Below, piece after piece: positions 1,275-39,522 of a DNA stretch of 64,000 nt. Under the pieces are notes generated by a model that worked only from the letters and a program-made list of their open reading frames with translations, was not told the origin of the DNA and did no database searches. Position numbers and translations under genes: made by a program. Source of the stretch: Escherichia phage vB_EcoM-Sa45lw; the sequence record MK977694.1; one strand, given 5' to 3'. The stretch's first letter is position 1, and every line of letters begins with the position of its first letter.

Positions 1275-1534
1275 AAAAGATTCCTTTTAATGTATCTTTT
1301 AGACCATTCTATCATATCATCATAATCTAAAAAGTATTCATCAAATTCAGCCATGCAAACAACACCTTGTGCTGTTTTTGATGTAATATAAATTATTCCA
1401 ACATATCTAGAATCTTCTTCGGTATAATCAATATTTGCTATGAATTCATCATTAATGTCAAATGTCGAAAACTTCACAATATGCATCCTTAATACAAGAT
1501 ACAGCCATATCTTGTAATGATTTAGGTGTGTCAT
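1271..1534 (-). CDS. Hypothetical small protein (46.1/46.2 position)
   Basis: ORF track; stop overlaps gene 46 GTG start; overlaps next ORF in another frame, true start probably internal. Confidence 0.4.
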   Translation of the reverse strand: MTHLNHYKIWLYLVLRMHIVKFSTFDINDEFIANIDYTEEDSRYVGIIYITSKTAQGVVCMAEFDEYFLDYDDMIEWSKRYIKRNLL

Positions 1535-29987: not shown

Positions 29988-30461
29988 TTATTTGAACGAT
30001 TTAACGTACTGAATAGAACCCTTACTATTCACAAAGGCAATTTTACCATTTTTATTATACATGGTAGCAGTACGCTGATAACCATAGGTTTGTTTACCAG
30101 ATTGATAACCAACTAATGCAAAATTATCTTCACCCATTTTATTCTGTTTAGCGCGAATGCGTTCATGACCATGTGCCATAAGAACCTTAGCATCACCAGT
30201 TGCAATGGATCGACGAGTTTTTTCATCTTCAACTGCATTAACAAAGTCGTCAAATGAATCAAATTTAGCATGAGATTTATTATACAATTTTCCATCTACT
30301 GCATAATTATATCCCTGTACATCCATTTCAACTTCTGTACCATCATCCAATACAGCAGTAATTTTTTGACCTTTTTTAAATTTCAAAAGATCAGTAAAAG
30401 ATTCAGCAATAATTTGAGAATTAATAGCTGCTTCAGTGATAAATTCTTGATATGTTTTCAT
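29988..30461 (-). CDS. Internal head protein-like (capsid-targeting N-terminus MKTYQEFITE)
   Basis: N-terminal 10 residues match the T4 internal-protein CTS consensus MKTYQEFIAE (gp21 protease site after E10); 157 aa; lies downstream of denV rather than between denV and e as in T4. Confidence 0.6.
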   Translation of the reverse strand: MKTYQEFITEAAINSQIIAESFTDLLKFKKGQKITAVLDDGTEVEMDVQGYNYAVDGKLYNKSHAKFDSFDDFVNAVEDEKTRRSIATGDAKVLMAHGHERIRAKQNKMGEDNFALVGYQSGKQTYGYQRTATMYNKNGKIAFVNSKGSIQYVKSFK

Positions 30462-30470
30462 GGGTTTCCT

Positions 30471-30887
30471 TTAAATGTAAATATTTTTACCGTAATACTT
30501 ATACCAATGTGGTTTCATTAAAATTTTTTCATCAAGTCGTTGTTGACTCAATTTAATAGCTGATTTGCATGGATTATAATCATTTTTCCATTCTATTGGA
30601 ATATCGCTGATGTCAGGAACTTCAGTATCTTTTATACTGAACCCGCGTTTTAAGCATTCCGTTATAATGTCTAATTGACGCTTTCGCAAAAATTCTAACT
30701 TATCGTAAAAGAACGTAACATGACCAGAACCTAAAATAAACTCGGAAGATATTTTAAAATCTTTAACGCGCTTACCGTTTGCCACATGCTTACGAACTAT
30801 ACCAAAAACACGCGGCAATTCACGGTATTCTGCGATTAAATGTTGATCAGCAAGTTCAGATACTAAAGTCAAATTAATACGAGTCAT
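30471..30887 (-). CDS. denV: Endonuclease V (pyrimidine-dimer DNA glycosylase)
   Basis: 138 aa [38 protein letters not shown]... matches remembered T4 endo V. Confidence 0.9.
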
Positions 30888-30912
30888 TTTATCCCTCCAA
30901 GTAACTGTGAAT

Positions 30913-30942
30913 ATACTATCACAATTCTAGGAGAAAGTAAAC
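30913..30942 (-). promoter_or_regulatory. T4-type early promoter (GTTTAC, 18 bp, TAGTAT) for denV
   Basis: Minus strand: aaagttGTTTACtttctcctagaattgtgaTAGTATattc; GGAGG + ATG follow. Confidence 0.6.
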
Positions 30943-30946
30943 AACT

Positions 30947-31915
<969 letters not shown>

Positions 31916-34400: not shown

Positions 34401-34934
34401 TTATATCATGCTACTTAAGAGATGTAAACTATTTTTAATTTTACAAATTCGTTCAGCTTCTTCAACAGCGGCAGTGATAATGCTTTTAGCTATAGGAGTA
34501 CTAATACTAGTAGCTTTTACACTTAACACGATTTCTTTATCTTTACCAGGCCAACCCCACGATTTTTCACCATGGGTGCCTTTAATTACAGCAGACACCT
34601 CAAGTGAGCATCCATTATCGCATGTTTTTACATTAACAACCCAAGTGTCACTTTTCTCAACCGGTTTATCCCAGTAAATATTAAGAATACGTGGAACATC
34701 AAATTTAGCAGGGCAAATCTTAACCGTAAGACCTTCGCTTTCTAGCCAATTAATAAGAGGGCGTTCATACATGCGGCGATGTGGGCTTTGAACTCGACAA
34801 GCTTTGTACCCATTGCTTGCGGCTTCACTAAGCTCTTCTAATACCTGCTTTTGCATTATTGATAAGATACCATCAAAAGATTTTTCGGAAGTTTCATTCA
34901 GTTCGGTATAAAGAGACATAACAGTTTTCCTCAA
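34401..34934 (-). CDS. Hypothetical protein (177 aa)
   Basis: ORF track. Confidence 0.5.
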   Translation of the reverse strand: MRKTVMSLYTELNETSEKSFDGILSIMQKQVLEELSEAASNGYKACRVQSPHRRMYERPLINWLESEGLTVKICPAKFDVPRILNIYWDKPVEKSDTWVVNVKTCDNGCSLEVSAVIKGTHGEKSWGWPGKDKEIVLSVKATSISTPIAKSIITAAVEEAERICKIKNSLHLLSSMI

Positions 34935-34975
34935 ATTATAGGCTCATAATATCTCAATCATGAGCCTATATAAAC

Positions 34976-35239
34976 TTATTTCATATTATTGAAATATTCT
35001 TCTGCGATTTCGTCGTTATCATGGTAAACTTTAGAAGACAGTTTAACATAACCTTCAGCAGTGAACATGTTAATCACAACCTTTACAGTATACCACTGAC
35101 CATCTTCATTACCCATTACTGCATAGGTTTCAAACATCGGATGATCAGGACCGATAACTTTAATATCATTCACCGTACGACCGAAATCTTCTGAAACACA
35201 TTTCATAAAGAAGTTGAACAGTTCACCGTAATTATCCAT
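34976..35239 (-). CDS. Hypothetical protein (87 aa from ATG)
   Basis: ATG at 35239 with GGAG downstream of early promoter; track start 35251 is TTG. Confidence 0.5.
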   Translation of the reverse strand: MDNYGELFNFFMKCVSEDFGRTVNDIKVIGPDHPMFETYAVMGNEDGQWYTVKVVINMFTAEGYVKLSSKVYHDNDEIAEEYFNNMK

Positions 35240-35282
35240 TTCATTCTCCAAGTTGTTTTCTGTATCAGTAGTTGATAGTTGT

Positions 35283-35312
35283 ATAGTACCATAGAAGAAC
35301 AGGGATGTAAAC
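35283..35312 (-). promoter_or_regulatory. T4-type early promoter (GTTTAC, 18 bp, TACTAT)
   Basis: Minus strand: aaactGTTTACatccctgttcttctatggTACTATacaac. Confidence 0.6.
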
Positions 35313-35445
35313 AGTTTTGTGAAAAATTTTTAAAAAGTTTTGGGGAATTCTAGGGCAGGGAGGGGAAATCAAAGGATAGGATAATATATTATAAAGGGTA
35401 GAAACTAAATGATGTCTAGAGAGGCCTGGAAAGGCCTAGATACCA

Positions 35446-35472
35446 AAAAGCCCCAACCTTTCGGCTAGGGCT
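35446..35472 (-). terminator. Intrinsic terminator (minus strand) after IP-like gene: GCCCUAGCC-GAAA-GGUUGGGGC + U5
   Basis: Near-identical copy of the terminator at 36004..36030. Confidence 0.6.
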
Positions 35473-35479
35473 AAGAATG

Positions 35480-35953
35480 TTATTTGATTTGTTTAGCAGA
35501 CCAAATGCGGTCTTTAATAATTTTTTGGATATCTTCAACATACTCAAGAGAGTGAGCATGTGGGTTATCTTTGAAACTATAAGCACGAGCTAGTTTTTGG
35601 CCTTCAGTTTTGATTACTAAAAGCTCTTTAAGGATAGCTTCATATTTGGAGATAATTCCTTTAACAATATTTTTCTCTTGTGCGACTTTAGGATCTGCTT
35701 TAGGAGCAGGTTTACCCGAAGCCTTTGCAAAAGCAGCGCCAGTAGCAACTAAACTTTTCCAGGCCATACTAACTGCATTTCCCGTAAATCCTTCCGCTTT
35801 CATGTCGCGTGCGAACTGGAATCGTGATTCATCAGAAGCATCTTTGTAAGAATATTTACCCGCTGCAATGGCTGCTTTTGCGACAGCTTGAATTTCGGTG
35901 CTAGATGCTTCATTTAACACCGCTTCATTTAAAAATTGAGTATATGATTTCAT
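35480..35953 (-). CDS. Internal head protein-like (CTS-type N-terminus MKSYTQFLNE), 157 aa
   Basis: N-terminus resembles T4 internal-protein capsid-targeting sequence; Ala/Lys-rich; own late promoter; flanked by duplicated terminators. Confidence 0.55.
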   Translation of the reverse strand: MKSYTQFLNEAVLNEASSTEIQAVAKAAIAAGKYSYKDASDESRFQFARDMKAEGFTGNAVSMAWKSLVATGAAFAKASGKPAPKADPKVAQEKNIVKGIISKYEAILKELLVIKTEGQKLARAYSFKDNPHAHSLEYVEDIQKIIKDRIWSAKQIK

Positions 35954-35993
35954 CTTATTTCCTGTTTTAATTCGTGGATTTAATATACTACTA

Positions 35994-36001
35994 TATTTAT
36001 A
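35994..36001 (-). promoter_or_regulatory. T4 late promoter TATAAATA upstream of IP-like gene
   Basis: Exact TATAAATA on minus strand ~40 nt upstream of ATG at 35953. Confidence 0.55.
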
Positions 36002-36003
36002 CC

Positions 36004-36030
36004 AAAAAGCCCCAACCTTTCGGTCGGGGC
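36004..36030 (-). terminator. Intrinsic terminator (minus strand) downstream of tRNA/stable-RNA region: GCCCCGACC-GAAA-GGUUGGGGC + U5
   Basis: Minus strand reads agCCCCGACCgaaaGGTTGGGGcttttt. Confidence 0.65.
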
Positions 36031-36039
36031 TAAGCCTTG

Positions 36040-36335
36040 CGGCAACCTTGTCGGGGTTCCACCTGCTAAGGCAAGTGTTTGTACGAAACGCCGGGATTCG
36101 AACCCGGTTATTAAGCAGTTGACGCTACTCAATATTTTTAAAAGGCCATATCTCGACCATATCCGAACGTTCCGTCAAAAACGCTACTCGGCTTACGGCA
36201 AAGATATTTCCTCGAATCGATAATTCGGTGCGCCGTTTCTGCTGTGATGTAAGAGGGCATCAATAAACGCAAAGATTATTAACGCAATTCCTTACTCAGG
36301 GAACATCAGTCCGACGACTTACCGGTAGCGACCCG
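36040..36335 (-). ncRNA. Candidate tRNA-like stable RNA region (possible counterpart of T4 species 1/2 RNAs); boundaries not resolved
   Basis: No ORF; minus strand carries a T-arm-like CCGGG-TTCGAAT-CCCGG at 36091..36107 followed by terminator; position downstream of tRNA-Arg. Confidence 0.3.
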
Positions 36336-36340
36336 GTTTC

Positions 36341-36691
36341 TTAATATTCTTTTAAAGCATCAATCTGTTTACGGCGTTCACGCCATAAATCAATTGCTTC
36401 ATACGCGGATTCAACATTTCGAATTGGACGGCATTTATATAAAGATTTGTGATTTTGATATTGCGTAGATAACGGAATTTTATCTAAAAGGTCTTTACGT
36501 TCAAAGTATTCGTAACCATCTAAGCCAAATGAACGATTTTTGAGAAATTGCCAATGACCAAATTCGTTTTGAATATAAATATAATCCGCATGTTGATAAA
36601 GTAAATTAATTTCACGAAATGAGATATGTTTTTCATATTCATTGAAGTAAAATGTTAAATCATGAACTACTAAATAAACATTACCTTTCAT
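36341..36691 (-). CDS. Hypothetical protein (116 aa) embedded in the tRNA/stable-RNA locus
   Basis: ORF track; long ORF for AT-rich sequence; no GIY-YIG/HNH motif. Confidence 0.45.
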   Translation of the reverse strand: MKGNVYLVVHDLTFYFNEYEKHISFREINLLYQHADYIYIQNEFGHWQFLKNRSFGLDGYEYFERKDLLDKIPLSTQYQNHKSLYKCRPIRNVESAYEAIDLWRERRKQIDALKEY

Positions 36692-36709: not shown

Positions 36710-36785
36710 TGGTCGAGGCAGTAGGGATCGAACCTACGACCTAGGACTTAGAAGGTCCTTGCTCTTCCTTCTGAGCTATGCCCCG
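36710..36785 (-). tRNA. tRNA-Arg (anticodon UCU)
   Basis: Manual cloverleaf: acceptor CGGGGCA/TGCCTCG, anticodon loop CTTCTAA, T-arm GTAGG-TTCGATC-CCTAC, CCA encoded; 76 nt. Confidence 0.85.
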
Positions 36786-36789
36786 TAAT

Positions 36790-36865
36790 TGGGGTGACCG
36801 ATGGGAGTCGAACCCATGACTACGAGAATCACAATCTCGAGTTCTACCAACTGAACTACGGCCAC
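36790..36865 (-). tRNA. tRNA-His-like (anticodon GUG), discriminator C, no encoded G-1
   Basis: Acceptor GTGGCCG/CGGTCAC, D-arm GTTC-AGTTGGTA-GAAC, anticodon loop TTGTGAT, T-arm ATGGG-TTCGACT-CCCAT, CCA encoded; resembles E. coli tRNA-His. Confidence 0.7.
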
Positions 36866-36979
36866 ATTAATACCTACTCCAACAATCAAGATGTCTTCAC
36901 ACGAAATTAAGAGAAGAGTGATCAGTTCAACCCCTATAATCGCGTCAAGTAGATATTAATGTGACAGTTGTCACAAATT

Positions 36980-37054
36980 TGGCGGACGTGATAGGATTCG
37001 AACCTATAACCAATCGCTTAACAGGCGATCGCTCTGCCATTGAGCTACACATCC
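36980..37054 (-). tRNA. tRNA-Asn (anticodon GUU)
   Basis: Acceptor GGATGTG/CACGTCC, anticodon stem-loop ATCGC-CTGTTAA-GCGAT, T-arm ATAGG-TTCGAAT-CCTAT, CCA encoded; 75 nt. Confidence 0.8.
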
Positions 37055-37058
37055 AAAT

Positions 37059-37145
37059 TGGTGGGGAGTGATGGAGTCGAACCACCCGAGTCGCAATGAC
37101 AATGAATTTACAGTCCACACCGCTACCTCTACGGGATAACTCCCC
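37059..37145 (-). tRNA. tRNA-Tyr (anticodon GUA), class II with long variable arm
   Basis: Acceptor GGGGAGT/ACTCCCC, anticodon loop CTGTAAA, variable arm TGTCATTGCGACTCG (cf. E. coli tRNA-Tyr), T-loop TTCGACT, CCA encoded; 87 nt. Confidence 0.8.
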
Positions 37146-37157
37146 TAATTCATAATT

Positions 37158-37232
37158 TGGTGGCCCTGGGTGGAATTGAACCACCATCTGGCGATTATGA
37201 GTCGCTTGCTTGAACCTTCCAGCTACAGGGCC
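37158..37232 (-). tRNA. tRNA with anticodon CAU (T4 tRNA-Ile-type, lysidine-dependent, or Met)
   Basis: Acceptor GGCCCTG/CAGGGCC, anticodon loop CTCATAA, T-arm GGTGG-TTCAATT-CCACC, CCA encoded; 75 nt. Confidence 0.8.
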
Positions 37233-37233
37233 T

Positions 37234-37309
37234 TGGTGCTGATTGACGGAATCGAACCGCCGACCTTCTCATTACAAGTGAGTTGCTCTACCTACTGAGC
37301 TAAATCAGC
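37234..37309 (-). tRNA. tRNA-Thr (anticodon UGU)
   Basis: Acceptor GCTGATT/AATCAGC, anticodon stem-loop ACTCA-CTTGTAA-TGAGA, T-loop TTCGATT, CCA encoded; 76 nt. Confidence 0.85.
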
Positions 37310-37314
37310 AAAAC

Positions 37315-37404
37315 TGGCGGAGGTGATAGGATTCGAACCTATGAATCGCCGGAGCGACTGCCGGTTTTCAAGACCGGTGCATTCAACCACTCTGCCACAC
37401 CTCC
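37315..37404 (-). tRNA. tRNA-Ser (anticodon UGA), class II
   Basis: Acceptor GGAGGTG/CACCTCC, anticodon stem-loop CCGGT-CTTGAAA-ACCGG, long variable arm, T-loop TTCGAAT, CCA encoded; 90 nt. Confidence 0.85.
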
Positions 37405-37406
37405 AG

Positions 37407-37480
37407 TCTCCATACAAGGATTTGAACCTTGGACCTCCTGATCCCAAATCAGGCGCTCTACCAAACTGAGCTACACGGAG
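37407..37480 (-). tRNA. tRNA-Pro (anticodon UGG), CCA not encoded
   Basis: Acceptor CTCCGTG/TATGGAG (two G-U), anticodon stem-loop CCTGA-TTTGGGA-TCAGG, T-loop TTCAAAT; only 2 nt from tRNA-Ser 5' end (dimeric precursor as in T4). Confidence 0.8.
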
Positions 37481-37490
37481 TAAATTAAAT

Positions 37491-37564
<74 letters not shown>

Positions 37565-37569
37565 AAATT

Positions 37570-37656
37570 TGGTGCGAGAAGTGGGACTCGAACCCACAAG
37601 GAAATCATTCCGCAGCATTTTAAGTGCTGTGCCTTTACCAATTTGACCATTCTCGC
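37570..37656 (-). tRNA. tRNA-Leu (anticodon UAA), class II
   Basis: Sequence GCGAGAATGGTCAAATTGGTAAAGGCACAGCACTTAAAATGCTGCGG...CACCA matches remembered T4 tRNA-Leu; 87 nt. Confidence 0.9.
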
Positions 37657-37657
37657 G

Positions 37658-37730
37658 CTGGGAATAAAGGACTCGAACCTTTGCATCCTGGAATCAAAAT
37701 CCAGTGCCTTACCAACTTGGCTAATTCCCA
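37658..37730 (-). tRNA. tRNA-Gln (anticodon UUG), CCA not encoded
   Basis: TGGGAATTAGCCAAGTTGGTAAGGCACTGGATTTTGATTCCAGG... acceptor TGGGAAT/ATTCCCA; abuts tRNA-Leu (Gln-Leu dimeric precursor as in T4). Confidence 0.9.
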
Positions 37731-39264: not shown

Positions 39265-39522
39265 TTATTTTAAATCTTCTAATCGTTTCTTCATCTTAGA
39301 ACCATTTTTAGCGATTTCTCCTGCGTCAGAGCATAATGCTAAAAGTGCTTTAACTTTAGTTTGGTCTCCTTTAAAAGACGAAGGATCGACTGCAGCAGCA
39401 AGTTCTTTAATACGAGAGAAAAGACGCTCAGCTTCAGCTAAAGCCATTCCAAGCTTTACTTCCATACCATGAGAAGATTCAGTGATAATAGTTTCTGTAG
39501 CAAACTCTTTATAAGTTTTCAT
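39265..39522 (-). CDS. Internal protein I-like (CTS-type N-terminus MKTYKEFATE), 85 aa
   Basis: CTS-like N-terminus; position immediately downstream of 57B as T4 ipI; own early promoter. Confidence 0.6.
   Translation of the reverse strand: MKTYKEFATETIITESSHGMEVKLGMALAEAERLFSRIKELAAAVDPSSFKGDQTKVKALLALCSDAGEIAKNGSKMKKRLEDLK

Follow-up and report, generated by a model that had tools for sequence, protein, structure and literature searches.

A candidate internal-protein gene in a late, terminator-bounded cassette next to the tRNA cluster of T-even phages

To our knowledge, the internal proteins of T-even phages, which are packaged in the head and injected, are unique among phage counter-defence factors in that they reach the host before phage gene expression has begun. 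Those numbered Ip4-Ip10 reportedly go back to Repoila et al. in 1994. The T4 prohead protease follows an (L/I)xE cleavage rule. Two ip loci have been recognised, denV-e and trna.4-57B, and no other part of a T-even genome is stated to carry ip genes (PMC2839356); Silas et al. 2025 also give two ip loci (PMC12373910). According to the same 2025 work, T4 Ip1, Ip2 and Ip3 are inhibitors of GmrSD type IV restriction enzymes, each of a different one: IPI* acts on the GmrSD of strain CT596 and the other two on two further subtypes, and none protects against the target of another (PMC12373910). When seven ip genes from outside T4 (ip4-10) were set against GmrSD variants, no hit was reproducible (PMC12373910). 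IPIII is required on ECOR17; it acts in the cytoplasm and, if made inside the cell, does not need its leader (PMC9391042). The regulatory elements associated with ip genes are early promoters with AT-rich stem-loops (Arbiol et al. 2010, PMC2839356). A second described arrangement is the mobile PeSL (promoter-early stem-loop) cassette of T4-type phages, in which a terminator-plus-promoter motif flanks a single ORF and marks indels, and in which gain and loss are explained by recombination between repeats (PMC2839356; Comeau et al. 2014, PMC4122927).

We analysed a 64,000-nt stretch (the window) of Escherichia phage vB_EcoM-Sa45lw (MK977694.1). Over the region 34900-36400 its identity with Escherichia phage JY01 is 99.9%, with wV7 99.3% and with RB51/RB68 98.3%; these are T4-like phages of Tequatrovirus, to which the window likewise belongs. 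By the RB68 and T4 annotations, the unit that we call cassette A lies between e.8 and the rnaC/rnaD stable RNAs that close the tRNA cluster, in a region whose genes are all carried on the minus strand (Table 1). We consider it probable, at about 0.6, that cassette A is a self-contained late unit for an unrecognised T-even internal protein, at a third ip locus. Internal proteins as a kind are known; what would be new is a candidate family at a third, late-regulated locus, shuffled by terminator repeats. Because e.8 has its own early-type promoter, cassette A is insulated from it.

Table 1. Positions of the features discussed, in window coordinates except for cassette B, which is placed within retrieved loci
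Feature	Position	Strand	Basis or remark
Candidate internal-protein gene, cassette A; 157 aa including leader; ATG start; stop codon 35480-35482	35480..35953	-	ORF translation
Leader MKSYTQFLNE|AVLNE|A, codons 1-15; two tandem LxE motifs, putative gp21 cleavage sites	35909..35953	-	sequence motif
Shine-Dalgarno AGGA, 6 nt before ATG	35960..35963	-	sequence inspection
T4-type late promoter, exact TATAAATA, 40 nt upstream of ATG	35994..36001 (read 36001..35994)	-	motif search
TermA: stem 36031..36008, 10 bp, GAAA loop, then U-run; -21.6 kcal/mol	36004..36031	-	folding
TermA': stem 35472..35449 and U-run, 7 nt past stop codon; -18.3 kcal/mol	35445..35472	-	folding
Right (rnaC-proximal) copy of 36-nt direct repeat, ATACCAAAAAGCCCCAACCTTTCGGTCGGGGCTAAG	35999..36034	.	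T4 keeps this terminator sequence as its single copy
Left (e.8-proximal) copy of 36-nt direct repeat	35440..35475	.	repeat search
e.8, gene downstream of cassette A	34976..35251	-	annotation in RB68, T4
Early-type promoter of e.8 (TTTACA-17-TACTAT, TG extended)	35283..35311	-	sigma-70 scan
rnaC (species 1 RNA), last gene of upstream tRNA/stable-RNA unit	36082..36221	-	approximate; transferred from T4, RB68 annotation
Ip4 (DUF7412, phrog_3155), annotated internal head protein, leader MKTYQEFITE	29988..30461	-	annotation
Ip5, annotated internal protein at ipI locus next to 57B, replacing IPI	39265..39522		annotation
Cassette B	L005 680-1243 (RB14); L006 680-1242 (RB69); L004 670-1233 (DalCa)

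The gene itself begins MKSYTQFLNEAVLNEASS, and the 157-aa ORF starting MKSYTQFLNE that the first-pass annotation had reported is present at the position given in Table 1. Relative to the Mosigvirus copy, its dN/dS is 0.087 at a dS of about 1.6, which amounts to strong purifying selection. Cassette A is present in 511 phage records, and in 60 sampled rows of these, every annotated gene under the match is called 'hypothetical protein'. We give almost no credence to the idea that the ORF arose by chance or that its repeats are an assembly artefact, given the selection and the recurrence of the ORF throughout the 511 records on the one hand, and the presence of cassette A with both repeats in independently sequenced genomes on the other. 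An Rfam search returned no match inside cassette A. Truncated or frameshifted versions of 61, 97, 108 and 111 aa occur in several phages, SfPhi01 and G28 among them, which fits a dispensable accessory gene under fluctuating selection.

The gene is flanked by a 36-nt direct repeat whose copies are 92% identical at a spacing of 559, and this is the sole direct repeat family detected within 1.6 kb. Its 28-mer core occurs twice in the 64 kb at up to 3 mismatches, and did not occur in 100 shuffles. Each copy carries a terminator with a GC-rich 10-bp stem, a GAAA loop and a U-run (z of -3.6 for TermA' and -3.8 for TermA). The three differences between them all preserve pairing: C-G to U-G, G-U to A-U and A-U to G-U. 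TermA closes the tRNA-rnaD-rnaC transcription unit and carries a terminator annotation in G4507 and DalCa. The duplicated terminators proposed from the first reading thus do fold and are near-identical, with their coordinates shifted by one base to those in Table 1.

Between TermA and the gene, the exact late promoter that had been placed 40 nt upstream of the start is present as proposed; it begins 3 nt past the TermA U-run, and its first three bases fall within the direct repeat. The motif alone is not significant because TATAAATA occurs 11 times on both strands of the window, compared with about 16 that we estimate would occur by chance at this base composition. Its weight lies entirely in where it sits and in being conserved among relatives: Klebsiella phage RCIP0032 and a Cronobacter/Serratia-type locus (L013) have this terminator-TATAAATA junction too. 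The composite motif GGGGCTTTTTRGTATAAATA gave 3 IMG/VR matches only, and a sigma-70 scan of the minus strand from TermA to the ATG found no site. By contrast, the promoters of the six canonical ip genes examined, which amount to three kinds of upstream region (T4 ipI, PST ipV and window Ip5; T4 ipII; T4 and PST ipIII), are of the early GTTTAC type, and these genes lack an exact TATAAATA within 90 nt. Window Ip4, PST ipIV and PST ipVI likewise lack TATAAATA. Thus the cassette A gene is regulated differently from the canonical ip genes, with an exact late promoter and GC-rich terminators where those loci have early-type promoters and AT-rich stem-loops (PMC2839356). The same holds against PeSL: cassette A resembles it in having a single ORF flanked by terminator and promoter, in marking an indel and in the recombination between repeats that explains gain and loss, but its promoter is the late TATAAATA rather than an early sigma-70-like one, and the likeness is one of layout.

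Comparison with relatives makes the indel precise. T4 has no gene at the site and a single terminator copy, the difference being a 559-bp repeat-bounded indel. The T4 junction reads ...GATACC-AAAAAGCCCCAACCTTTCGGTCGGGGCT-AACCGTTGCGGCAA, in which the left flank is joined to the right flank via one repeat. Consistent with this, a 1231-nt query spanning the site is 57% covered in T4, in two pieces over 674 nt. The empty site is also found in RB6, PST, ACG-C40 and others, and a cross-site search showed the loci of some relatives to be about 680 nt longer or otherwise filled. Aligning the flanks to related phages, as had been suggested, therefore places cassette A as a repeat-bounded indel against T4, RB6, PST and others, and not in an identical context in all relatives. 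Altogether, the e.8-rnaC site has four states: empty (T4), A (window, RB68), B (RB14, RB69) and B+A (DalCa), where B is a second cassette; the tandem order, B then A, is found in DalCa, sb2, REP4 and others. As the comparison of these states shows, the unit comes and goes as a block by recombination between the 36-nt terminator repeats, giving empty, A, B and B+A. All cassette junctions fall within the AAAAAGCCC(C/T) part of the terminators. Both TermA copies are identical in DalCa, and in Mosigvirus Shf125875 both terminator copies have a common, lineage-specific GGAAGGGGC variant, which suggests that the copies are still exchanging sequence.

Cassette B occupies the same intergenic site in the same orientation, and has a targeting leader, a terminator of its own and a promoter with an ATAAATA core. 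The RB14 version is ncORF136c, of 187 aa, starting MKTYAEFLTE; in RB69 a frameshift splits the gene into ORF148c/149c. Names such as RB69ORF149c and other locus tags have no mention in searchable papers. It differs from cassette A in the length of its product, in an AT-richer terminator and in the lack of detectable pairwise similarity beyond the leader. Both cassettes are covered by phrog_2280, "unknown function", and this common PHROG suggests homology beyond the leader, which BLASTP and hhalign do not confirm: they align A and B over the first 10-11 residues only. Phage records number 511 for cassette A and 165 for cassette B, and T4 is in the minority without both. Between Tequatrovirus and Mosigvirus (PhAPEC2), cassette B is about 98% identical and cassette A about 76%, which suggests a recent transfer of B between genera.

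The layout of tRNA cluster, terminator, late promoter, targeting-signal gene or genes and terminator is seen again in T4-like phages of Mosigvirus, Klebsiella and Cronobacter/Serratia. Mosigvirus Shf125875 has the same cassette layout as the window. In Klebsiella phage RCIP0032 the order is tRNA-Thr, a GC-rich terminator, GGGGCTTTTTAGTATAAATA, the homologue and then a differing terminator. In L013, tRNA-Gly is followed by a terminator, TATAAATA, two tandem leader-bearing ORFs, a terminator and an early promoter, and the second ORF, starting MKSFSSFLNE, is a member of the cassette A family. Four T4-like genera have the gene directly behind their tRNA genes, which makes a deletion between the repeats the more likely origin of the T4 state; the locus is probably ancient and lost in T4. 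Thus, of the recombinational insertion proposed for the cassette in the first-pass annotation, the repeat-bounded indel stands, while its polarity is probably the reverse, the T4 empty site being most likely a deletion. The first ORF of L013 (72 aa, 1286-1504 (+)) carries a long IPI-style leader, MKSFTEFLTESADLTLTE, ahead of the family member in the late operon; it is possibly a third unrecognised internal-protein family.

What ties cassette A to internal proteins is its N-terminus. Six known targeting sequences served as the reference for scoring the N-terminal ten residues at each possible start of an ORF with 50 codons or more (n=894 in the window). Against a background with a mean of 1.2 and an sd of 6.9, the annotated internal proteins Ip4 and Ip5 both scored 52 and cassette A scored 32, third of the 894, with the next best at 21; the resemblance to the T4 capsid-targeting sequence that had been noticed in the first reading is borne out. 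LNE occurs at residues 8-10 and 13-15, followed by Ala each time, and as sequence motifs both are of the (L/I)-x-E form. A five-residue duplication in the leader (FLNEAVLNEA) gives the two tandem putative protease sites, and the Mosigvirus orthologue has FLTE only. An exhaustive profile search over 1.8 billion representatives found 13 relatives only. Some of them, at 26-51% overall identity, retain M-x-x-[FY]-x-x-F-[LV]-x-E as the leader motif (MLKFNEFLAE, MINFSDFLNE, MKSFSSFLNE); in others the start of the motif is kept with the acidic site further along (MISFNEFVDGNLITE, MKFKEFLAE). Met1 and Phe7 are invariant across relatives, and variants in the family include MKTYNEFL and MKSYAEFLTE. This retention of the leader across diverged relatives is the strongest argument that the cassette A protein would be an internal protein.

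A skeptical reading of the same data is that the gene encodes an accessory protein made late, which stays in the cytoplasm and does not enter the head, its leader being a relic of ip-gene recombination or a coincidence of a short motif. MKSYTQFLNE has only 5/10 identities to the T4 targeting sequence MKTYQEFIAE, the types of promoter and terminator are unlike those of canonical ip loci (PMC2839356), and BLASTP and hhalign similarity to cassette B or to known internal proteins ends at residues 10-11. A relic, however, would decay, and here the leader motif with its acidic site is kept despite deep divergence of the body; moreover, two further unrelated ORFs at this locus share the leader, and late-only expression is what a virion component needs. 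We therefore regard an unpackaged protein as quite unlikely.

The internal-protein reading is also consistent with the general properties of the gene and its site. As with T-even internal proteins, the product has an N-terminal targeting-type leader ending in (L/I)xE and is small, basic and non-essential, the gene being missing from T4, RB6, PST and RB14. The predicted mature form has 142-147 aa and a pI of 9.5, compared with pI 9.0-9.65 for T4 IPI*, IPII* and IPIII*. The site, too, is like the known ones: it is hypervariable, alternative genes swap in it, regulatory repeats bound the units and the mature parts are unrelated. The differences are that cassette A is at neither recognised ip locus and that the presence of its protein in the virion is predicted from sequence only. 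Ip4 of the window provides a direct comparison. It has the same 157 aa and a targeting-type leader, but no similarity to the cassette A protein beyond the leader and no TATAAATA within 90 nt, and it is at the canonical denV-side locus. The 'paralog' of the first-pass annotation accordingly holds for the leader, whereas the mature part resembles no known internal protein.

An AlphaFold2 model (mean pLDDT 75, from an alignment of 8 sequences) predicts that the leader is disordered and that residues 18-75 form a small bundle of helices, joined by a linker rich in Pro and Lys (76-87) to a long hairpin of helices (88-154). What the genera have in common is the N-terminal bundle; towards the C-terminus the protein hardly differs between Tequatrovirus and Mosigvirus but is different in Klebsiella-type phages. 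Since Foldseek against PDB and BFVD gave no significant match outside the protein's own family, the predicted structure gives no functional clue. A PDB sequence-profile search had no match, and neither in structure nor in sequence did Pfam, the PDB profile or Foldseek (PDB, BFVD) show a resemblance to a known inhibitor. Pfam Shikimate_dh_N appeared as a sub-threshold match only and was set aside. In the rows and cluster members inspected, the cassette A and B proteins are named hypothetical or uncharacterised with one exception for A: UniRef lists the Klebsiella phage KPKp homologue (39-42% identical) as 'Internal head protein'. The name given to the Ip4 cluster, on the other hand, is IpIV or internal head protein.

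These properties bear on whether the protein, if packaged and processed, acts against the host at all. It might instead have a physical role, as a basic protein that fills the head or neutralises DNA charge, or as a scaffold-core accessory like gp67/gp68. Its pI, the all-helical predicted structure with a Pro/Lys-rich linker, the presence of the gene in most sequenced T-evens (511 records) and a C-terminal half too similar between Tequatrovirus and Mosigvirus for a fast arms race would all suit such a role. Yet the gene is dispensable and is truncated or frameshifted in several phages, and it is polymorphic for presence, with other cassettes able to fill the same site, as is typical of accessory host-range genes; in addition, all three T4 internal proteins have defence targets (PMC12373910). 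On balance, a purely physical role is unlikely, and by analogy the likeliest role of the cassette A protein is to be injected and inhibit one specific early-acting defence.

That this protein is packaged, cut by gp21 and active against a host defence is inferred by analogy, and the course of events would be as follows. As the sequence shows, the tRNA unit has its early and middle transcripts stopped at TermA, with TATAAATA three bases on. Late in infection, the late transcription machinery would start there and produce a monocistronic mRNA ending at TermA'. Following the T4 paradigm, the N-terminal MKSYTQFLNE would bring the 157-aa precursor into the prohead scaffolding core. Cleavage by gp21 after E10 and/or E15 (LNE|A) would expose the new N-termini AVLNEASSTEIQAVAK and/or ASSTEIQAVAK, and leave in the head a basic protein of about 15.5-16 kDa with pI 9.5. 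A third LxE site in the protein (LKE, 108-110) could mean that it is degraded rather than kept. Again as in T4, the mature protein would be ejected with the DNA, and by analogy with Ip1, Ip2 and Ip3 it would then neutralise a first-line host defence. The likeliest target, by the same analogy, would be one specific type IV restriction enzyme of the GmrSD type that is directed against glucosyl-hmC DNA. Since ip4-10 were without reproducible GmrSD hits (PMC12373910), a GmrSD target is not assured.

More broadly, the site after the tRNA cluster may be a conserved, strictly late injected-protein locus of enterobacterial Straboviridae, with three or more unrelated families (A, B and, in L013, the 72-aa ORF), targets beyond those of Ip1-3, and terminator/late-promoter repeats that shuffle genes between genera. 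We put this forward tentatively, as a possibility with somewhat less than even odds; it would include that the locus was overlooked because T4 lost the cassette. If A and B are genuine internal proteins, most sequenced T-evens carry one or two extra unflagged injected effectors, and the carriers include therapeutic or biocontrol candidates such as wV7, AR1, PP01 and the BASEL Bas42 phage. Candidate inhibitors would then be gained for orphan GmrSD and other early-acting defences, and the repeat-bounded late cassette would be a simple mechanism for moving effectors between phages. The supplements of Silas et al. 2025, where ip4-10 were the only such genes tested, contain no sequence matching cassette A, and Petrov 2010 and Nolan 2006 contain no discussion of internal proteins. 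The virion proteomics of SH7, with 13 proteins, and of HY01, with 5 bands, is too shallow to bear on packaging.

Several other features of the window were observed. The ipII/ipIII locus is rearranged (29988-30461 (-), 30471-31441): T4 ipII and ipIII are absent, denV abuts e, and Ip4 is on the far side of denV. In the tRNA cluster at 36710-37730 there are 11 genes, compared with 8 in T4, and those for His, Asn, Tyr and Met are among them; segB is absent, and the tRNA-His/tRNA-Asn gap is 114 nt. A 116-aa ORF of the RB68_139 / RB69ORF150c type is found at 36341-36691 (-), between rnaD and tRNA-Arg, where T4 has no ORF. In the 3' part of rnaC (window 36040-36100 (-)) there is a tRNA-like T-arm, GGGATTCGAACCC; ARAGORN and Rfam gave no match in this region, and G4507 annotates it as a 94-nt tRNA-Lys(ttt). 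Finally, a near-perfect 14-nt inverted repeat, TATAGGCTCATAAT / ATCATGAGCCTATA, lies at 34937-34970 directly downstream of e.8, and T4 has the same.
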